From Peptococcaceae bacterium BRH_c8a (GTDB lineage Bacteria > Bacillota > Desulfotomaculia > Desulfotomaculales > Desulfallaceae), in contig LADP01000036.1 of the NCBI GenBank assembly GCA_000961575.1, positions 24,283-88,282 on the forward strand: a stretch of DNA of 64,000 nucleotides. Reading direction: 5' to 3'. Shown here piece by piece: positions 941 to 44,289 of the stretch. Under the pieces are notes generated by a model. That model made no database searches, was not told the origin of the DNA, and was given only the letters and a program-made list of their open reading frames with translations. The translations under genes were made by a program, and so were the position numbers. The stretch's first letter is position 1; every line of letters begins with the position of its first letter.

Positions 941-1210
941 TTACTCTTTAACCAACTCCACTGTTCCACCTGCTTCTTTAATGGAATCAATAATGCTAGA
1001 CAAGCTGGCATTGCCTGCCAGTAACGGGATCCTTACAATCAGACATATTCCGGAAGGTGATGTTATTTCAATAAGATTAAGAAGATTAATTACAGCACCG
1101 GCAGGGATAAAAATTCTAATTAATGTTCCCGGTAATTGGGGGCATTCTTGAGTGGGTACCTTATTGTTGTAACCTGGTGTAGTCCATTTTCCGCCATCCT
1201 TCGTGTGCAT
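941..1210 (-). CDS. Small hypothetical protein, possibly NIL/ACT-like ligand-binding fold
   Basis: 89-aa ORF followed by a hairpin. The C-terminal half (IRIFIPAGAVINLLNLIEITSP...SIIDSIKEAGGTVELV) only loosely resembles NIL-type domains, so this is a weak call. Confidence 0.3.
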   Translation of the reverse strand: MHTKDGGKWTTPGYNNKVPTQECPQLPGTLIRIFIPAGAVINLLNLIEITSPSGICLIVRIPLLAGNASLSSIIDSIKEAGGTVELVKE

Positions 1211-1403
1211 GAGCAGTCCCTCCTAATTATTTTACTATACCATTATATGGTTAAAATAATAAAAAGTTCATTATATTAACAGCAATTTTAATAGACCTAA
1301 GTGATAAAAATTTATGTTTGTCTTTCACTGCATTAATTTGTTGTATACAGTTTGGGGGATAAAAAATTAAATAAGGGAGAAATTATTATGGGAGGTGATA
1401 AGG

Positions 1404-1757
1404 ATGAACAAGACAGCAACAGCACTCATTATTAAGTTTGCCATGACCTTTATTTTTGCCGCCATTGCATTCATCACCATGAATAATAATGCCTGGATGT
1501 GGGTGCTTTTAGTGGCCCTGGGAGGGACAGCCCTTAATTACTGGGTGGGTGATTTGATGGTTTTGCCTAAATACGGTAATATAGTGGCTTCATTAGGCGA
1601 TGGGGTAATGGCTCTTGTGGTTGCTTATATTGTAGATTTACTGGTTGTACCTTTTCGTACCGGCCTGACTTCTTTAATTGTGTTTGCCGTACTGATAGCG
1701 GTTGGAGAGTATTTCTTCCACCAATACCTGCGCCGGTCTGCCAAGGCTGAGTCTTAA
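1404..1757 (+). CDS. DUF2512/YndM-family small membrane protein
   Basis: GGGAGGTGA SD lies 5 nt before the ATG at 1404 (the track ORF starts at 1395). Three or four hydrophobic helices and an ALIIKFAMTF...YWVGDLMVLPKYGN pattern are typical of the YndM family. A strong terminator follows. Confidence 0.6.
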   Translation: MNKTATALIIKFAMTFIFAAIAFITMNNNAWMWVLLVALGGTALNYWVGDLMVLPKYGNIVASLGDGVMALVVAYIVDLLVVPFRTGLTSLIVFAVLIAVGEYFFHQYLRRSAKAES

Positions 1758-1790
1758 AAACTGTGAACTTTAATCTTTTATGGTTGGCTA

Positions 1791-1831
1791 AAAAAGAGCC
1801 CGGGTCGCTAAACGCGATCCGGGCTCTTTTT
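1791..1831 (+). terminator. Rho-independent terminator
   Basis: AGAGCCCGG ... CCGGGCTCT stem followed by TTTTT. An A-tract upstream makes it potentially bidirectional. Confidence 0.85.
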
Positions 1832-1934
1832 GTGATACTCCTTAAATGTTATCACGTGACATCAAGGTCATTTATCCTAAAGATTTAAACGCTTAACATA
1901 CTGCTGCTTGCGATAAATTCGCGCTGTAAGCTAA

Positions 1935-2042
1935 TTATTTCTTTGCATCATATGCGCCAAAGAATGGAAACATTCCGAATACCAGCAGGATAAGCACCAG
2001 GAACAGGATGAAACCACCGCCACCACCAGAACCGTAAGCCAT
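1935..2042 (-). CDS. YjcZ-family small sporulation protein (35 aa), not in the ORF track
   Basis: The reverse complement reads AAGGAGG-N9-ATG, then MAYGSGGGGGFILFLVLILLVFGMFPFFGAYDAKK, then stop. A Gly-rich N-terminus plus a single hydrophobic helix is the YjcZ-like architecture. Confidence 0.6.
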   Translation of the reverse strand: MAYGSGGGGGFILFLVLILLVFGMFPFFGAYDAKK

Positions 2043-2276
2043 TGAAATTAAACCTCCTTGCTTTAGTTATTTTGGTTTTTTTGTTTTTCGGTTTATACTA
2101 TGCGACCATGCCAGTATGTGTTAACGCCTGAGGTAAATGATAAAAACCTAATTAACCGGGCTTATTGACCGTTGTTATAACTGTTGGTTAAGAAATAATA
2201 CACAGGAATTTTAATGTGGGAAGGAATTATTTGATTTAATGATGAAATAATCTGATAATAGAAACGATTAGGAGGG

Positions 2277-3122
2277 TTGCGTTTGCATTATAGACTGCTC
2301 ATTGCCTTATTTTTGGTTTTGGCTTTCTTGTCGGGTTGCTCTAAAGGTGATGTAACTGCACTGATGTTCGCTGCCAGCGACGGTAAAGATGAAACCGTGC
2401 GGGAACTTCTGGACAAGGGCCTGGATGTTAATACTAGATTTGACGGTAAGGAAACGGCCCTGATGCGGGCGTCCCTACACGGTCAACAGGATGTGTTAGA
2501 AGTACTATTGGAACGGGATGCCGATGTTAACGCCGTTGATGACGATGGTATGAACGCTCTGATGCGGGCTGCACTAAACGGTCATCGTGCGGCGGTAGAA
2601 AAGCTGCTTTCGGCCGGAGCGGAAGTCAATGCAACCGATGCCATGGGTGGTACGGCACTGACATTGGCTGCATTTAAAAACCATGTTGACGTTATGCGGG
2701 TATTGCTGGAGCATGGAGCGGTCGTAGATGCACAGAACAAGAATGGCATGACGGCGCTTATGTTCGCCAGTGGTGAGGGAAACATTGATTGCATAGAGAT
2801 GTTACTGGAGCACGGTGCAAGTCCGTATAAAAAGAATGTGGACGGAGCCAATGCTTTAATATTGGCTACGATAAGTGGAAAAACCCTGGCAGTGCGTGAG
2901 TTATTGGAAAACGGCGCTCAGGTGAACGCCAGGGATAACGAAGGTGCAACAGCGTTAATTATGGCTGCCAATTATAAACACACAGAAATTCTTAACATAC
3001 TGCTGGAGTACGGTGCGAATGTAAATCCTAAGCAAATCGATGGGTGGACAGCCTTAATGTTTGCCGAAGAGAAAGGTCAGGATGAAATGATCAAGTCGTT
3101 GAAAGAAGCCGGGGCCAGGTAA
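2277..3122 (+). CDS. Ankyrin-repeat lipoprotein
   Basis: Signal peptide with lipobox LSGC, followed by about 8 tandem 33-aa ankyrin repeats (G.TALM.A...GH..VV..LL..GA.VNA). The real start is probably the TTG at 2283, 6 nt after GGAGGG. Confidence 0.8.
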   Translation: MRLHYRLLIALFLVLAFLSGCSKGDVTALMFAASDGKDETVRELLDKGLDVNTRFDGKETALMRASLHGQQDVLEVLLERDADVNAVDDDGMNALMRAALNGHRAAVEKLLSAGAEVNATDAMGGTALTLAAFKNHVDVMRVLLEHGAVVDAQNKNGMTALMFASGEGNIDCIEMLLEHGASPYKKNVDGANALILATISGKTLAVRELLENGAQVNARDNEGATALIMAANYKHTEILNILLEYGANVNPKQIDGWTALMFAEEKGQDEMIKSLKEAGAR

Positions 3123-3295
3123 CCTCTCAAGAGATTTGCCTTCGCTTAAAAACCCATAGAGCGTACATCTTTAGGCATAATTTGGCTAAAGATGTACGTC
3201 AGGTACAATTTACCCTTATGCAGCGGGGTTATTTTTTTGCACATTTAACAATAATAACAAACGAAAGAATACTATTATTTTGGAGTGATCAGGGC

Positions 3296-4138
3296 ATGCG
3301 CTCCATGTGGAAAGGTGCCGTTACTTTCGGTTTGATATATGTCCCTGTCAAACTATATGCGGCCACAGAAAAAAAGGACGTTAAGTTCAACTACCTGCAT
3401 AAAAAATGCAGCACTCCGGTGCGCTACGTACGCTTTTGCCCTTATTGTGACGACGAGGTGGAAATGGGTGAAATAGTAAGGGGATTTGAATACGAAAAGG
3501 GCCGGTATATTACCATGACTGACGAAGAACTGGCCGAAGTGGCCGGGGAAAAAGAGCGTAGTATTGAAATAGTCGATTTTGTTGATGCAGGGTTAATTGA
3601 CCCCGTGTATTATGATCGTTCCTACTATCTGGCGCCTGGTGAGGGCGGAACCAAAGTATACGCTCTGCTTAAACAGGCTATGGAAGAGAGCGGGAGGGCC
3701 GCTGTGGCACACGTGGCTATCAGGAGCAGGAAATCATTGTGTGTAATTCGGCCGGCTGGCCAGGCGCTGGTTATGGAAACCATGTTTTATGCCGATGAAG
3801 TACGCCAGGTGGAAAAAATTGAGGAGATTGGCGCCCCGGCCAAGGTACATGAAAATGAAATTAAAATGGCGGTTAGCCTCATTGACAGTCTGACCGTAGC
3901 TTTCGACCCGGCCAAATATAAAAGCGAATACCGGGAAAAACTTCACGAGGCTATTCGGGCTAAAATAGCCGGCGAAGCAGTAGTTGAAAAACCGGCCATA
4001 CCTGACACCGAGAAGGTAGTAGACCTGATGTCAGCATTAAAGGCCAGTATTGATTTGGCGCGGGATCAACGAGACAAAAAACCGCGTACCCGAAAAACCA
4101 CGCCACAAAAACGCAAAGCGGCGGCCGACAAAAAGTAA
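3296..4138 (+). CDS. ku: Ku DNA end-binding protein (NHEJ)
   Basis: MRSMWKGAVTFGLIYVPVKLYAA is the canonical bacterial Ku N-terminus, and the C-terminal tail is Lys-rich. The track ORF start at 3182 is an upstream extension. Confidence 0.9.
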   Translation: MRSMWKGAVTFGLIYVPVKLYAATEKKDVKFNYLHKKCSTPVRYVRFCPYCDDEVEMGEIVRGFEYEKGRYITMTDEELAEVAGEKERSIEIVDFVDAGLIDPVYYDRSYYLAPGEGGTKVYALLKQAMEESGRAAVAHVAIRSRKSLCVIRPAGQALVMETMFYADEVRQVEKIEEIGAPAKVHENEIKMAVSLIDSLTVAFDPAKYKSEYREKLHEAIRAKIAGEAVVEKPAIPDTEKVVDLMSALKASIDLARDQRDKKPRTRKTTPQKRKAAADKK

Positions 4139-4207
4139 TAGTCGTTATGCTTTTAGCATCAATTAAAATGCTGTCGGGGGTGCATTAACCTGCATGCCAC
4201 AGGAGCT

Positions 4208-5155
4208 TTGCCACTAGTTAAACCTATGTTGGCCGTGTCTGCGGATCCATTCGATGACCCTGACTATGTATTTGAGGTTAAGTGGGATGGTTACCGCTGC
4301 CTTGCTTACTTGGAAGCAGGGACGGCCACCCTGTTTTCCAGGAATCTTAAAAATATAACCCCTCATTTTCCTGACCTGGGGGATATGTATCGGCAGGCTC
4401 AAAAAACTTCAGTAATTTTAGACGGTGAGATAATCGTTCTACGAGACGGGCAGCCGTCTTTTGCCGCTTTACAATCCCGGGCTAGACTTACCGATAGTCA
4501 GAAGATAAGCTGGGCGGCGCAGAGTATGCCGGCTCTTTACATGGCATTTGATATACTTTATTGCCAGGGCAATTCGCTGTTGGATTTTCCGTTGTCTGAC
4601 CGGTTTGAGGAATTAAAGGCAGTTGTTGGGCCAAACCGGTTGATTGTTGTTTCGGATGGGGTACGCGGCGCTGGGATATCCTTTTTCCGAGCCTGTGTTG
4701 GCAGGGGCCTTGAAGGGATGATGGCCAAGCGCATGGACAGCAGGTACCTGCCCGGAACCAGGTCACCCCTGTGGAAGAAAATACGTGCCACTCGTGAAGC
4801 TGACTTAGTAATTTGCGGGTATCGGAGCGGTAAGGGCAGTCGGCGGTTGGGGGCGCTGGTACTGGGTGCCTGGAATGGCAAAGAATTTGCTTACCAGGGG
4901 CTTGTGGGCACTGGTATCGACAGGGTTGCAGAAGAGGCCTTGTTAATTAAACTGGCGGCCATTGGCACTAAGCATAAAAGCCTGGAGGTGGCAGAACTCT
5001 TGGGGCGGTCTGTACACTGGGTAATACCTGAAATAGTGTGCAGGGTAGAATACCTGACCCTTACCGGGCAGGGGCTTCTTAGGCACCCGGTCTACCGGGG
5101 ACTGCGCAGTGATAAAAATCCCCGGGAGTGTAGACCGGCGGATGAACAGTGTTAA
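4208..5155 (+). CDS. ligD: ATP-dependent DNA ligase (LigD ligase domain as a stand-alone protein)
   Basis: Adenylation motif EVKWDGYR and downstream DGEIV, EGMMAKR and LWKKIR motifs. The start is ambiguous: TTG 4208 is only 2 nt after GGAG, and ATG 4226 is the alternative. Confidence 0.85.
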   Translation: MPLVKPMLAVSADPFDDPDYVFEVKWDGYRCLAYLEAGTATLFSRNLKNITPHFPDLGDMYRQAQKTSVILDGEIIVLRDGQPSFAALQSRARLTDSQKISWAAQSMPALYMAFDILYCQGNSLLDFPLSDRFEELKAVVGPNRLIVVSDGVRGAGISFFRACVGRGLEGMMAKRMDSRYLPGTRSPLWKKIRATREADLVICGYRSGKGSRRLGALVLGAWNGKEFAYQGLVGTGIDRVAEEALLIKLAAIGTKHKSLEVAELLGRSVHWVIPEIVCRVEYLTLTGQGLLRHPVYRGLRSDKNPRECRPADEQC

Positions 5156-36183: not shown

Positions 36184-36244
36184 AAAGAAGCCCTACGCCG
36201 CTGTTCACTTGATCCAGGGCGGGGGGAAGGGAGTCGTTTCATTC

Positions 36245-36472
36245 ATGGGGATCCCCAGGTTTGATTCACCCGACGAGGAAATTAAAAAATGGTTAAATCA
36301 TATCGCCCTCATCTGCCTGAGCGAAGATTTTCAGGAACTAAAGAAGGAACTGGAAAAGATATATATGCAATCACAGATGGAAGATGCGCAGTTAGTGGCC
36401 TTTAAAGATGCCTTATACGCATTTTTAGCTCAGGAAGAGGATGAGATGGCCCGGTTGGCCGGGACGAATTGA
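36245..36472 (+). CDS. Hypothetical small acidic helical protein (candidate antitoxin)
   Basis: 75 aa counted from the ATG at 36245 (the track ORF starts at TTG 36209). It ends 7 nt before the next ORF. I do not recognise the family. Confidence 0.4.
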   Translation: MGIPRFDSPDEEIKKWLNHIALICLSEDFQELKKELEKIYMQSQMEDAQLVAFKDALYAFLAQEEDEMARLAGTN

Positions 36473-36479
36473 ATCGATA

Positions 36480-36707
36480 ATGGAAATGAAAATAATTGTC
36501 ACCGAACACGCGCGCAAAAGGCTGCGCGACTACCGACAAGATAAAATCACCACCGCCGATATTATCACCGCTGCTAGCAGTGTTCCCGGTCGTATACCTA
36601 CCGCCACGCGGTTCAGAGGTTTTTTTGCCAGATCCGGGCGAATGTTTGACATTGTGGCTAAGGATATTTCTTCGGGACGACTGGTAATTACCATCATCGG
36701 CAAATAA
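36480..36707 (+). CDS. Small basic protein, DUF4258-like (candidate toxin)
   Basis: MEMKIIVTEHARKRLRDY...GRLVITIIGK. The T.HA..R...R opening and the hydrophobic V.T C-terminal strand resemble DUF4258-type small toxins. Recognised by eye only. Confidence 0.4.
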   Translation: MEMKIIVTEHARKRLRDYRQDKITTADIITAASSVPGRIPTATRFRGFFARSGRMFDIVAKDISSGRLVITIIGK

Positions 36708-39667: not shown

Positions 39668-39762
39668 AGTCACAAGTCACAAGTCACAAGTCGAAGGTCA
39701 AAGGCCGAAAGTCGAAAGGTCATCGTTTAATGTATGACTTTTGATCTTTGACTTTCGACCTT
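39668..39762 (+). repeat. Heptamer-array palindromic element, variant copy E
   Basis: Eight phased 7-mers (AGTCACA x3, AGTCGAA, GGTCAAA, GGCCGAA, AGTCGAA, AGGTCAT), a 10-nt loop, then the inverse array ATGACTT TTGATCT TTGACTT TCGACCT. Confidence 0.9.
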
Positions 39763-39794
39763 AAACTGATTTATTGAAGCGGGGAGGGGTTTGT

Positions 39795-40475
39795 GTGTCT
39801 CTTGAACTATTCGGTTATAAAAACATTCACGAAAAAGTGGCACAAGAAAAAAAGTGGATGCATAATAAGTTTGCCGATTGTCCGATCAAGTATGACCCGG
39901 AGTCTGCCTGGCGCGATAATGCCGTAATCTGCCGGTTATCGCTGCTGCTGCCTTATTGTAAAACATTTGGAATTTACCAGATTTTGAATCGCGAATTTAA
40001 CGATGCTTTGGCAGGGGAAATAAAAAAACTCGACCTATGGCCGATGCTGGAAGTTGGTGCGGGTAATGGTGAACTAGCTGCCACCCTGCGTGCCAGAGGC
40101 ATTGAATTAAAAGCGGTGGATAATTATTCAGAACGTTTACCTGAAAGAACACTAAACGCCGTGCCCCAACCGGAAAAAATGGATTATCTCGAGGCACTGA
40201 GCCAATATAAGCCGAAACTGGTACTCTGCAGTTGGATGCCGGATGACGAAAACTGGAACGAAGAATTTATGGCCTGCAATTCAGTGCAAGCTTACATATT
40301 GATTGGTAATGCCGATTGGTTGCCTCGTAAAGAACCGGTGGGTTGGCGAAGCAAGGTTTTGATGGGGCCGAATAAATGGTCGCTCTGCCGACTGGACAAT
40401 GGGGTGGACTTTGAAAGACCGGATCTGTGGTGGAGACACTCTAAAGTATATATCTTTGAGAGAGATTCGATTTAA
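39795..40475 (+). CDS. Hypothetical protein with class-I SAM-methyltransferase-like motif
   Basis: The LEVGAGNGELA glycine-rich motif followed by an acidic residue (AVDN) suggests a Rossmann MTase fold. GGAGGGG SD lies before the GTG at 39795. I do not recognise the family. Confidence 0.45.
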   Translation: MSLELFGYKNIHEKVAQEKKWMHNKFADCPIKYDPESAWRDNAVICRLSLLLPYCKTFGIYQILNREFNDALAGEIKKLDLWPMLEVGAGNGELAATLRARGIELKAVDNYSERLPERTLNAVPQPEKMDYLEALSQYKPKLVLCSWMPDDENWNEEFMACNSVQAYILIGNADWLPRKEPVGWRSKVLMGPNKWSLCRLDNGVDFERPDLWWRHSKVYIFERDSI

Positions 40476-40488
40476 TCAATATTTGGAA

Positions 40489-41241
40489 TTACCAGTGAAA
40501 AAACACGCGGTGGTTGCTATTTCCGGTGTTATCCCCGTGACAAAGAAAATCGTATAGGTCTTTGACTGTTACAATGTTCTTTTCGCGCATTAACTCAAGA
40601 AATATTCCAAACAGTCTGGCTGTAAGAAGAGCGTCCCCAATGGCGGTATGGCGACCTTGCGGTTCGATGCCGTGCATATGAAGCAGCGAATCCAAATCGG
40701 TTGCACTTTCAGGCGGGTACATGGCTGTGGCAATGTTTTTGGTATCGATGATAATATTATGCACCCTGGTTTTACAAAAATATTTTAATTTGCGGTTGAT
40801 AAAGGAAAGATCCAGACCCAGGGCGTGACCAACCATTACGGTGATACCAAGAAAGTCAAGCATTTCCTTTAGCGCACTAAATATATCTTCCTCGTCGTCG
40901 GCCATGTTATTGTCGATGCCGGTTAGCAGGGTAATTTTTTCAGGTATCGGGCGGAACGGATTGACCATCCGGTGAAATTTTTCAGCGGCTATAATTTGGG
41001 CCCCAACCATCTTCACCGCGCCAAGGGAAATAATTTCATCTCCCTCGTGGGCACAAAACCCTGTGGTTTCAGTATCCACGACAGTAAAAGTAAGCTCATC
41101 CATCGGGGTATTGAGTATATTGCATTTTTTTGCTTTTTCAGCCGATTCCTTAATCGCTTTAATTATAGCCTCACCCGGCGGCGGACCGGGGTAACGGTGT
41201 TTTCCGGTTATATTTAACCTGTTAATTAGCGGGGTAAACAA
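40489..41241 (-). CDS. DEDDh 3'-5' exonuclease (DnaQ/epsilon-like)
   Basis: ExoI VVDTETTG, ExoII GHALGLDLSF, ExoIII HTAIGDAL. The TTG start is 8 nt after an AAGGAGG that overlaps the stop codon of the upstream gene. Confidence 0.8.
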   Translation of the reverse strand: MFTPLINRLNITGKHRYPGPPPGEAIIKAIKESAEKAKKCNILNTPMDELTFTVVDTETTGFCAHEGDEIISLGAVKMVGAQIIAAEKFHRMVNPFRPIPEKITLLTGIDNNMADDEEDIFSALKEMLDFLGITVMVGHALGLDLSFINRKLKYFCKTRVHNIIIDTKNIATAMYPPESATDLDSLLHMHGIEPQGRHTAIGDALLTARLFGIFLELMREKNIVTVKDLYDFLCHGDNTGNSNHRVFFHW

Positions 41242-41254
41242 TTATACTACCTCC

Positions 41255-43225
41255 TTACTGACCGAGGTAACTTAGCCAATAAATGCTAAACCTGTTGCTG
41301 GTTAACTTTTGCAGTCTGGTTACGGCCGTAAAAGCATCCTTCAATAGAGCCTGTTCTCGTTTGCTGAGCCGATGTGGGTTAACGTAATTATCTGGTTGAT
41401 GTCCTTGCTTAAATTTTTTAACATTTTCCCTGATGCGAAACATCATTAATGTTTCATAAGCTGCGCTGACCAGTTCGGCATCGTCGGGTGGGATAATTTT
41501 TTGTTCATTTAAAATTCTAATTCGATCAAAGGTGGATGTAAACGAAATCCCGTATTTAACAGCATAAACCCTAATACAATTAACTATATGGATGGCGGCG
41601 GCGTTCTTTAAATTTATTTCTCCCCTGTGCGGCCCGTGTTTATCGGTCACAAATCCTCCCAGTAGGTTTAACGGGACTTTAAACTTTATATCGTCCTGGG
41701 TTAGCAGATGGGAAACAATAACTGTTGTATCGCTGGCGGGATCAATTGTTTTTACAATGTTTTGCAGTTTGCTGACCAGGGCGCTCGAGCCATAGATATA
41801 GCGAAAATCAAGGAATATGGTTAATGCTCTGACATTTTCAGGCACACCTTTTTTCATCCATTCGTGCACGGTCTCCTGCCATCCATTAAGCGATTGACAC
41901 CAAAGTTGGTTTGAGGCCATAACACCGCCCTTGCATTTAGCAAAACCGCATTTCGCCAGGCCATTTACTATACCTGCTGCCAGTTCATGAAAATAAGCAG
42001 CCACGTTTTGAGCCTGTTGTTCATCAGGGTTGGCGTAAACAATGGCATTGTCCTGGTCGGTACGTAAAGTCATTTCGCGTCGCCCGGCACTGCCCATGTG
42101 TATCCATGCGTATTCTACGGGTGGTTTACCCCGCCCCCTGGTTATCATTTCTTTTTCACAGATTTCAATTACCTTACGGGTTAGACGATCATGCAGTTCG
42201 GTCATTATTTCCATAATTGCAGTAACTGCAGCCTTTTCAGCTACTAGGGCATAAAGCATGCTGTTTATTTGCTGCCCGATAACAACTAGTTCATCAAGGC
42301 TGTCCTTGTTGTCAATTTCACTTGTAATTAATAGGGTGCCGGTATTTCGTGCTTTAACTAAATCCATGAGGGTAACAATACCAACCAGTTTTTCACGATC
42401 TACCACGATAAGATATTTAACCTGATGCTTAATCACTGCCAGCAGGGCTTGGTTGAAAAAAGATTTAGGACTGATGGTTACCAAAGTCTGTTCCATAATA
42501 TCACCGGTAGTGTAATCCTCTATAGAAGTGATATTACCTGTCATAATGCTTTTTAGTAACCCCTTTTCTGTGATCATGCCTAAGGGTTTTAAGTTATCAT
42601 CAGCAATCACCAGCGAACTAATATTTTTCTTAAACATCATGTCAACAGCAGCCTTTACTGACTGACTGGGGTGACAGGTGAGCACCGGTGTCGACATTAT
42701 TTCGCTAACCCGCTTACTGAACAACGGGGTATCAATGCTGCTGTATGCTTCAAAAGACTGTTCGGTGACAATTTCCTCATAAAGGACACGCATGCGCTCG
42801 CTAAGGATTTGGCTAAAAAAACCAGCAAAATCAGAATGGTTATTAATCAGATGTTCAAGGTCTTTTCTGGCCAGCAAAAAGCAGGCCATTTGCTCCTTGG
42901 CCCTTACAGATGCGGGGTAGGTAAGGTTTGTGAGAACCACGGTCTCACCAAAAAAATCAAGTTGTTGGCGGAAACCGACCACAGCTTCGATTCCTTTTTC
43001 GTTCGTTACCGTTATTTCCGCTGAACCATGGCTGATAATGAATAGGCAGCGCTGGCTGGGCTCTCCTTGCTTAAAAACATAGTCGCCCGGGAAATAAACC
43101 TTTATTTTTAGTTTGGGTATTAGTTCGTTAAGTACTTCAAGGGTCAGGGAATTAAAAGGCGTAACCGATTTTAAGGTTTTGATTACGTCTGTAGTCATTT
43201 TATAATTCCTCATCCATTCCTGCAT
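41255..43225 (-). CDS. cNMP-binding / tandem CBS / DUF294 nucleotidyltransferase signal protein
   Basis: N-terminal cyclic-nucleotide-binding beta-barrel (FPGDYVFKQGEPS...FFGE) and two CBS domains, followed by a GlnD-like NTase region (GSAGRREMTLRTDQDNA) and a helical C-terminal domain. The likely start is the ATG at 43198, which is preceded by GAGGAA. Confidence 0.8.
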   Translation of the reverse strand: MQEWMRNYKMTTDVIKTLKSVTPFNSLTLEVLNELIPKLKIKVYFPGDYVFKQGEPSQRCLFIISHGSAEITVTNEKGIEAVVGFRQQLDFFGETVVLTNLTYPASVRAKEQMACFLLARKDLEHLINNHSDFAGFFSQILSERMRVLYEEIVTEQSFEAYSSIDTPLFSKRVSEIMSTPVLTCHPSQSVKAAVDMMFKKNISSLVIADDNLKPLGMITEKGLLKSIMTGNITSIEDYTTGDIMEQTLVTISPKSFFNQALLAVIKHQVKYLIVVDREKLVGIVTLMDLVKARNTGTLLITSEIDNKDSLDELVVIGQQINSMLYALVAEKAAVTAIMEIMTELHDRLTRKVIEICEKEMITRGRGKPPVEYAWIHMGSAGRREMTLRTDQDNAIVYANPDEQQAQNVAAYFHELAAGIVNGLAKCGFAKCKGGVMASNQLWCQSLNGWQETVHEWMKKGVPENVRALTIFLDFRYIYGSSALVSKLQNIVKTIDPASDTTVIVSHLLTQDDIKFKVPLNLLGGFVTDKHGPHRGEINLKNAAAIHIVNCIRVYAVKYGISFTSTFDRIRILNEQKIIPPDDAELVSAAYETLMMFRIRENVKKFKQGHQPDNYVNPHRLSKREQALLKDAFTAVTRLQKLTSNRFSIYWLSYLGQ

Positions 43226-43506
43226 ATTTTAATAAACAGTTTATTCTGAAAAATAAGTATGCTCGACCTAAGTAGATTTTCGATTTATTACCAGCAATTA
43301 TGATTTTATGATATTAAAACACCATTTTTAATAATAAGTCAAGCGGGAACCGGATGTATTAGCGTGTTTAAAGAAAATTTGGTTATACGATGCCGAGGCT
43401 GACTGCTGTCACAGAGTGTGTATTTACTGTTGCGCCACGGAATAGAAATAAATAAAGTCCAGGTGCGTTCCTTTTAAAGTAAAACCGACGACAAAAAACA
43501 AGGTAG

Positions 43507-44289
<783 letters not shown>

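Follow-up and report, generated by a model that had tools for sequence, protein, structure and literature searches.

A 64,000-nucleotide (nt) stretch of the Peptococcaceae bacterium BRH_c8a genome (contig LADP01000036.1, positions 24,283 to 88,282), hereafter the window, carries on its minus strand a gene pair that encodes a sensor-bearing nucleotidyltransferase (NTase) of the DUF294 family and a stand-alone DEDDh 3'-5' exonuclease. The pair almost certainly belongs to the known PP_0354/PP_0353-type family and is present here as an accessory, lineage-specific insertion, with pnp and a 233-residue open reading frame (ORF) on one side and a ylxY-like deacetylase gene on the other. The window copy is an ordinary, relocated member of that family and adds no new component to it; what is new here is the asymmetric co-occurrence of the two enzymes, a dead-exonuclease fusion lineage, and natural single-gene losses at the pnp-ylxY slot. 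As the best explanation of the whole we tentatively put forward one operon in which a sensor-gated NTase of the GlnE/DrrA fold and a dedicated, NTase-dependent DEDDh exonuclease would act antagonistically.

The NTase and exonuclease genes form one operon

The genes, their domains and the junction between them lie as follows, with Pfam scores in brackets and NTase residue numbers, here and below, referring to the 647-residue form of the protein except where the 656-residue ORF is named.

41255 to 43225, minus strand: gene for a cNMP_binding-CBS-CBS-DUF294-DUF294_C protein of COG2905 type; longest ORF 656 residues
42836 to 43099, minus strand: cyclic-nucleotide-binding (CNB)-like domain with a non-canonical phosphate-binding cassette, FGETVVLTNLTYPASVRA (cNMP_binding, PF00027; residues 43-130 of the 656-residue ORF, E = 1e-17)
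42356 to 42709, minus strand: CBS pair, or Bateman module, with structural matches that include AcuB (PF00571 in two stretches; residues 173-290 of the 656-residue ORF, E = 7e-23)
41840 to 42274, minus strand: DUF294 NTase catalytic domain of predicted GlnE/DrrA fold, with G369-x11-D381-x-D383 and D464 (PF03445; residues 318-462 of the 656-residue ORF, E = 8e-47, 159 bits against a cut-off of 21)
41288 to 41707, minus strand: DUF294_C helical 'substrate-binding' domain of the KNTase_C/HEPN clan (PF10335; residues 507-646 of the 656-residue ORF, E = 1e-40, 139 bits against a cut-off of 22.5)
41242 to 41257, minus strand: coupling junction, with TAA at 41257-41255, GGAGG at 41254-41250, an 8-nt spacer and TTG at 41241
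40489 to 41241, minus strand: gene for a stand-alone DEDDh 3'-5' exonuclease of 250 residues, of a DUF294-associated subfamily (RNase_T, PF00929; E = 1e-29, 104 bits)

The two genes form one operon. The gap between them is 13 nt, the junction reads CAG TAA GGAGG tagtataa TTG, and the Shine-Dalgarno sequence of the exonuclease gene directly abuts the stop codon of the NTase gene (TAAGGAGG), in agreement with the tight translational coupling proposed in an earlier note on this DNA, which was made without database searches. The coordinates and strand given there for both ORFs match ours exactly, its domain calls were all correct by Pfam search, and its description of the pair as the only clear minus-strand genes is consistent with our survey, in which every other minus-strand ORF of at least 150 residues in the window is nested within a longer plus-strand ORF. 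Because close homologues of the NTase protein are 646-648 residues long and a GAGGA (43211-43207) lies 8 nt 5' of the third ATG of the 656-residue ORF, the true start is probably M10 (ATG 43198, giving 647 residues) rather than 43225.

The exonuclease depends on the NTase

The pairing, which the earlier note had described as recurrent in many bacteria, is indeed found across phyla. The loci analysed contain 93 DUF294 genes, six of them at contig ends, and of the 87 with an assessable downstream neighbour 42, from several phyla, are followed immediately and on the same strand by the exonuclease; the gaps in those loci range from -56 to +123 nt, with many -4/-1 overlaps, and two further exonuclease genes are convergent and two divergent.

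Co-occurrence analysis over 251 genomes, spread evenly across the window's own phylum, shows the two genes to be strongly co-conserved. We counted as a subfamily exonuclease any protein that has an open frame of 220-300 residues and reaches about 175 bits or more against the subfamily profile, a cut-off of our own; PolC and DinG domains also match the profile at E ≤ 1e-30, in frames of 900-1,490 residues, and were separated by length and score. DUF294 is carried by 37 of the genomes, 30 of them together with the exonuclease and 7 without it, no genome has the exonuclease alone, and 214 have neither (Fisher p = 2e-32, a value that exaggerates the association, as related genomes do not count independently). 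The genomes with both genes come from 17 families, and 29 of the 30 have an exonuclease no more than about 5 kb from a DUF294 gene on one contig. The dependence runs one way, with the exonuclease needing the NTase and not the reverse. The genome that contains the window has three DUF294 genes and three subfamily exonucleases, arranged as two pairs and one orphan of each.

Two variant arrangements were seen among the loci. Two tandem subfamily exonuclease genes follow one DUF294 gene at L012 (4839-6699) and at G140:C11:4929-6657, and Nitrospirota loci often have one exonuclease and two DUF294 genes, a sigma54 response regulator standing between the latter.

The pair occupies a variable slot between pnp and ylxY

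Eleven relatives of the order have pnp next to the ylxY-like deacetylase gene, at a distance of 79-256 bp. The earlier note had the pair inserted between these two genes; this is confirmed and can be refined, the insertion lying between ylxY and one further gene.

39774 to 40475, plus strand: 233-residue ORF with an LEVGAGNGELA motif resembling S-adenosylmethionine-binding motifs and no Pfam family

This ORF converges with the exonuclease gene; their stop codons are 13 nt apart, without an intervening terminator. Its homologue is the only occupant of a pnp-ylxY gap of about 0.9-1.3 kb in seven genomes of the family, and stands directly after pnp in 11 of the 17 other family genomes, most of them without DUF294 at the slot. 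It is an older, separate, family-level gene and not part of the pair.

The DUF294 family itself is found in 11 of the 31 relatives, and the DUF294-exonuclease locus is at the pnp-ylxY slot only in the window's genome (G000) and in G001, G002 and G006, where the exonuclease has decayed. A metagenomic relative with a 79% identical DUF294 protein keeps the whole arrangement. Single genes are also found at the slot: G003, of the same genus, has a full-length exonuclease (65% identity) there with no DUF294 gene beside it, and G006 has kept DUF294 (70% identity) with a frameshifted exonuclease remnant downstream (L089, G006:C160, 4592-4913; residues ~137-241), a natural loss of the partner exonuclease. 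The pair is an accessory one, and its slot is a variable hot-spot. Of all bins in the window, that at 42-44 kb has the lowest G+C (0.42).

At the G003 slot an AraC regulator and a 700-residue eCIS_core (DUF4157)/Ntox11 toxin-like protein stand in the place of DUF294 (L090, G003:C60:42000-50800, 1156-4408). Two heptamer tandem arrays were also noted in the window, AGTCACA x3.6 at 39668-39722, just after pnp, and AGTCAGG x4.7 at 44234-44287, followed by TCAAAAA units, just after the ylxY-like gene; each lies to the outside of the segment in which gene order differs from the ancestral one.

The NTase has the predicted fold of protein AMPylators

The larger protein is a COG2905/DUF294 member in which PF03445 is followed by PF10335, both above their gathering scores, and the sensor module of the family, cNMP_binding plus two CBS domains, is present at its N-terminus. 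DUF294_C has been placed in the KNTase_C/HEPN clan, with the conserved HEPN motif listed as absent from it (PMC3710099). In an alignment of 88 DUF294 proteins, made along with one of 48 partner exonucleases and drawn from 80 loci in several phyla, G369, S370, R373, E375, T380, D381, Q382, D383, N384, D464, R466 and G470 are invariant in all 88 sequences, and the Pol-beta catalytic motif (G-S, D-x-D and a third acidic residue) is intact. The G-x11-D-x-D spacing is common to GlnE, DrrA and kanamycin NTase.

AlphaFold2 models the full-length protein with a predicted local distance difference test (pLDDT) score of 90.2 and a predicted template modelling (pTM) score of 0.81, and the NTase module alone with values of 95.5 and 0.92. 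In a PDB profile search the full-length alignment drew so many CNB and CBS matches that an NTase-only profile, and then a fold search, took its place. The 71-sequence NTase-only profile has no PDB match at E ≤ 10. Foldseek, run against the PDB with the NTase module alone, gives only four matches at E ≤ 1e-3, all to GlnE or DrrA, with template modelling (TM) scores of 0.65-0.69. The best is the AMPylation domain of DrrA/SidM, a Legionella Rab1/Rab8 tyrosine AMPylase, in its complex with Rab8a (6yx5_B; E = 6e-8, TM 0.65/0.68 over 349 aligned columns, 13% identity). The GlnE domains score 0.67-0.69, with the adenylylation domain (3k7d, chains A and B) at 0.67-0.68 and the N-terminal domain (1v4a) at 0.69. 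The matches that follow, aminoglycoside NTases (TM ~0.3) and MntA antitoxins, are five orders of magnitude weaker; MNT-type NTases reach E = 0.4-1.7 at TM ~0.22, and terminal uridylyltransferase (TUTase), poly(A) polymerase and the CD-NTase CdnC all have E > 0.3 and TM ≤ 0.22 (CdnC, E = 2.0 and TM 0.22). On these models the fold is predicted to be that of the protein-AMPylator class, not that of a polymerase or a cGAS-type synthase.

The earlier note had called the NTase GlnD-like, a description that stands at the level of fold and clan and falls at that of sequence, where no PDB entry is matched, the GlnE NCBIfam model scores 16.5 bits against a cut-off of 625, and the protein is placed in none of GlnE, GlnD and DrrA. 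With GlnE and GlnD it has in common a Pol-beta core, a helical C-terminal domain, the G-x11-D-x-D motif and metabolite-sensing regulation; it differs in carrying CNB and CBS domains where those enzymes have PII/ACT sensors, and in lacking similarity to them in sequence. Removal of the mark is the task of a second NTase domain in GlnE and of an HD domain in GlnD, and DUF294 proteins are without such a domain; Pfam finds neither kind in the NTase protein of the window. DrrA is a secreted effector with guanine nucleotide exchange factor and P4M domains, and the enzyme that takes off its mark, SidD, has a phosphatase fold and is not an exonuclease. Taken together, the balance tips slightly towards a sensor-gated NTase that transfers a nucleoside monophosphate (NMP) onto a protein.

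The two enzymes might instead act on one and the same nucleic-acid 3' end or nucleotide messenger, which the NTase would extend or synthesise and the exonuclease trim or degrade. The substrate would then be untemplated nucleotides on an RNA or tRNA 3' end, in the manner of RNase T and the CCA-adding enzyme, or a linear oligonucleotide signal, an idea close to the earlier note's likening of the pair to signalling-nuclease modules. Turnover of tRNA 3' ends classically pairs an NTase with a 3'-5' exonuclease, the tight coupling and strict co-occurrence would be in keeping with a shared substrate, and sensor domains upstream of the NTase are typical of messenger synthases. However, the predicted fold is that of a protein AMPylator, distant from TUTase, poly(A) polymerase and CdnC by the scores given above, the family has no known messenger receptor or effector, and the dead-exonuclease fusion described below argues against an obligatory degrading enzyme. 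We consider a shared 3' end or messenger quite improbable, and less likely than either an exonuclease that erases a protein mark or one that is itself controlled by the NTase.

It is doubtful that the CNB-like domain reads the signal that its Pfam name implies. When FGETVVLTNLTYPASVRAKE is aligned to the CNB domain of PKG with HMMER, Tyr94-Pro95 replaces the phosphate-binding Arg-Ser/Thr and the FGE is kept. Tyr94 is invariant among 12 closer relatives; in the more distant Nitrospirota-type subgroup it is the Glu of FGE that is lost instead, and no DUF294-family subgroup compared keeps the full canonical phosphate-binding cassette. The combination of Gly-Glu and Arg-Ser/Thr that marks canonical cyclic AMP or cyclic GMP binders of the CAP/PKA/PKG type is thus not found in the CNB-like domain, and sensing of a cyclic-nucleotide second messenger, the function suggested in the earlier note, appears doubtful from these residues.

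The family is large and its sensors are interchangeable. The NTase-module profile matches 6,597, 4,720 and 2,715 representative proteins (clusters at 50% identity) at E ≤ 1e-3, 1e-10 and 1e-30, respectively, with N-terminal modules that include CNB plus CBS, CBS only, none, three PAS plus CBS, sCache_2 plus PAS with or without CBS, and PHP plus Cache, PAS and CBS. Four metagenomic proteins (P0194, P0201, P0205 and P0262) have the DUF294 NTase behind sCache_2 and PAS domains, one of them with an extra N-terminal PHP domain. The sCache_2 domains of chemoreceptors often bind C2/C3 carboxylates, and such sensors on DUF294 NTases would fit with the acetate/pyruvate theme set out below.

The exonuclease is catalytically conserved except in a fusion lineage

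The DEDDh residues of the exonuclease (D56, E58, D144, H198 and D203) are all present in the window copy and invariant in the 48 partner exonucleases. Among solved structures the enzyme comes closest to the PolC exonuclease domain 2p1j (E = 3e-23), DinG and DnaQ, and the nearest NCBIfam model, PRK07740, gives 186 bits, short of its cut-off of 261. The RNase_T domain and the five DEDDh residues are thus shared with RNase T and the DnaQ-PolC proofreading exonucleases, from which this enzyme differs in being a stand-alone protein of 250 residues, in its N-terminal extension of about 50 residues, variable in length and sequence across the subfamily, and in its restriction to DUF294-bearing genomes. 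The isoelectric points of the subfamily (median 6.6, range 5.0-9.8) give no pointer to a substrate.

CNB-CBS-NTase-exonuclease fusions were found in metagenomic sequence as P0270 (877 residues, on three contigs of up to 153 kb) and P0272 (886 residues, on a 61-kb contig). The exonuclease domain of the fusion aligns without gaps over 220 residues and carries the changes D56E, E58K, D144H and H198N, at four of the five DEDDh positions; the NTase motif is intact. Judged from these substitutions, the fusion argues for a physical partnership that may persist without exonuclease catalysis.

The family is found beside genes for carboxylate uptake

All ORFs within 10 kb of DUF294 in 82 loci were clustered and the representatives scanned with Pfam. 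The recurrent neighbours were these.

Exonuclease: 47 of 82 loci
SSF symporter: 34 of 82 loci
Acetyl-CoA synthetase: 30 of 82 loci
Sigma54 response regulator: 24 of 82 loci
SSF-fused histidine kinase (CbrA/CrbS type): 15 of 82 loci
DUF4212: 14 of 82 loci
DUF485: 10 of 82 loci
Isochorismatase: 9 of 82 loci
AcuC-like deacetylase: 5 of 82 loci

This is a context of carboxylate uptake and not of defence, and the recurrent neighbours include no defence genes. Within the genome of the window, the third DUF294 paralog (L005, G000:C15, 5665-11479) has an SSF symporter on either side; a small hydrophobic ORF accompanies each symporter, and one of these ORFs is weakly DUF485/DUF4212-like at a score below the cut-off. 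The third exonuclease (L088, G000:C5, 7230-10594) is unlinked to DUF294 and divergent from an operon in which a 104-residue ORF, for a small membrane protein, is joined to an SSF symporter gene.

The closest known systems point the same way. PP_0354/PP_0353 of Pseudomonas putida KT2440, PA3233/PA3232 of P. aeruginosa and Pflu5625 of P. fluorescens have the same architecture of cNMP-binding, two CBS and DUF294 domains, and the PP_0354/PP_0353 type has the RNase_T exonuclease immediately downstream in one operon, as here. Expression of PA3232-PA3235 (exonuclease, DUF294 protein, actP and yjcH) is induced about 16-fold on propionate (PMC9765439), PP_0353/PP_0354 are the strongest targets of MxtR/ErdR and the genes most dependent on it (bioRxiv 10.64898/2026.09.07.749794), and Pflu5625 belongs to the CrbS/R (MxtR/ErdR) regulon according to the literature. 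Without the exonuclease gene pp_0353, P. putida grows less well on pyruvate, a phenocopy of the actP-I deletion, whereas deletion of the NTase gene pp_0354 has no such pyruvate defect (PMC9927547). Price et al. found co-fitness with DUF4212 plus SSS symporters and speculated that the protein is needed for symporter expression (bioRxiv 10.1101/072470). The literature searched assigns no substrate or biochemical function to either enzyme, which bears out what the earlier note had said of the pairing.

From this context and these genetics, the family is probably a regulatory module for the uptake and activation of small monocarboxylates such as acetate, pyruvate, propionate and lactate. For the window copy we put the chance of such a role at about even, because it has moved away from transporter genes. 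Unlike the Pseudomonas pairs, it occupies the pnp-ylxY interval, away from any actP, acs or CrbS/R genes, in a host of a PolC-bearing (Firmicute) phylum, and its closest homologues are annotated as Desulfotomaculales and Peptococcaceae; it is likened to those pairs by architecture.

Defence and toxin-antitoxin readings, in which a CBASS/Pycsar-like or MNT-HEPN-like sensor NTase would control a nuclease on infection, draw on the accessory and patchy distribution of the pair among related genomes, on the variable hot-spot that it occupies, with its eCIS_core/Ntox11 protein in G003, and on a weak similarity of the CNB domain to Pycsar effectors in PADLOC (E = 2.5e-6). Against them, PADLOC returns no system-specific match for the pair, only generic matches to CNB and DEDDh domains, and the recurrent neighbours are acs and SSF symporters. 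The NTase does not have a CD-NTase fold, and the locus shows neither a CD-NTase-type synthase or system-specific profile nor the defence-island context of CBASS, Pycsar and CD-NTase systems; on the same grounds (neighbours, generic PADLOC matches and fold) the likeness to signalling-nuclease modules is unsupported. MntA-HepT does resemble the pair in placing an NTase with a KNTase_C/HEPN-clan helical domain beside a nuclease; its partner is a HEPN RNase in place of a DEDDh exonuclease, and the fold match is weak. MntA AMPylates this nuclease partner, the RNase HepT. The published P. putida genetics is out of line with toxin-antitoxin logic and in fact its reverse, the NTase deletion being healthy and the exonuclease deletion growing worse (PMC9927547). 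Defence and toxin-antitoxin readings are rejected on PADLOC, the fold search and the P. putida genetics, and we regard a module of either kind as extremely improbable.

Writer and eraser, or NTase-controlled exonuclease

In the antagonistic pair that we favour, the CBS pair and the non-canonical CNB-like domain would read an energy or metabolite signal and gate the NTase, the NMP mark would be inhibitory, and the exonuclease would oppose the NTase and restore the activity of a transporter or pathway. It is possible, at no great probability, that the exonuclease is the eraser, hydrolysing a tyrosyl- or seryl-NMP phosphodiester with release of 5'-NMP. We favour an eraser because it would be useless without a writer, which fits its presence in none of the 214 DUF294-negative genomes; because the exonuclease mutant is defective and the NTase mutant is not (PMC9927547); because DUF294 proteins are without the removal domains of GlnE and GlnD; and because DEDDh active sites hydrolyse aryl esters of 5'-NMP. 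On this last point, in 2002 Hamdan and colleagues reportedly found the DEDDh epsilon subunit to hydrolyse the p-nitrophenyl ester of 5'-thymidine monophosphate, an aryl-phosphodiester analogous to Tyr-NMP. The most specific form of the proposal, in which the DEDDh enzyme is not a nucleic-acid enzyme at all but a de-nucleotidylylase that erases an inhibitory NMP from some part of the monocarboxylate uptake machinery (an SSF/ActP transporter or the small subunit of one, or else Acs), is unlikely; if true, it would be the first reversible protein-NMPylation cycle to use an exonuclease fold and would explain a gene pair conserved across many phyla.

About equally likely as an eraser is a genuine RNA or DNA 3'-5' exonuclease that is the output of the system, with the NTase as a sensor-regulator that inhibits or tunes it by nucleotidylylation or binding. 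Transcripts such as those of the symporter or acs would be processed or stabilised, and transporter expression would depend on the exonuclease, as the speculation of Price et al. on symporter expression (bioRxiv 10.1101/072470) would have it. In favour of this, the exonuclease keeps its DEDDh residues without variation and has nucleic-acid exonucleases as its closest relatives; it is never found without the NTase among the 251 genomes; and it is the exonuclease deletion, not the NTase deletion, that has a phenotype (PMC9927547), a result that serves this alternative as well as the eraser. A precedent can be seen in MntA-HepT, discussed above. Nevertheless, the exonuclease has no conserved Tyr or obvious acceptor site, no RNA target is known, the fold match to MNT-type NTases is weak (E = 0.4-1.7), and an output role for the exonuclease is difficult to square with the dead-exonuclease fusion.

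Several observations weigh against the sensor-gated writer and its eraser as well. Likeness to the GlnE/DrrA fold is no proof of a protein substrate, and aminoglycoside NTases share the fold more distantly. To our knowledge, reversal of a protein modification has not been described for any DEDDh enzyme; by sequence the exonuclease is closest to the proofreading domains of PolC, DinG and DnaQ, and its subfamily, the N-terminal extension included, has no conserved Tyr or other AMPylation-acceptor signature. Exonuclease catalysis must be dispensable in the fusion lineage because four of its five DEDDh residues are changed, and each gene can persist without an adjacent partner, as the G003 exonuclease and the G006 DUF294 gene do. 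The substrate gap in the literature, the mildness of the published mutant phenotypes, and the lack of a transporter or acs gene near the window copy, with four acs paralogs elsewhere in the genome, count on the same side, as does the fact that the cut-off delimiting the exonuclease subfamily was set by us.

The pair is widespread, with about 2,700 clusters matching the NTase module at E ≤ 1e-30, and among the most strongly induced members of the Pseudomonas acetate/propionate/pyruvate regulon. The AMPylator fold, the dependence of the exonuclease on the NTase and the dead-exonuclease fusion narrow the question of mechanism and, with the published single-mutant phenotypes, make it one of epistasis and biochemistry.

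Other features of the window

Upstream of the NTase gene a consensus scan picks out one weak promoter candidate.

43303 to 43331, minus strand: sigma70-like candidate, TTAAAA-17-TAAAAT, matching 9 of 12 consensus positions in the scan, which is not evidence of function

Elsewhere, two small ORFs between ribF and rpsO (36209-36707) have no Pfam match. The relative with the 79% identical DUF294 protein has counterparts of both in the corresponding place, of 78 and 74 residues (L086, 14504-14961).

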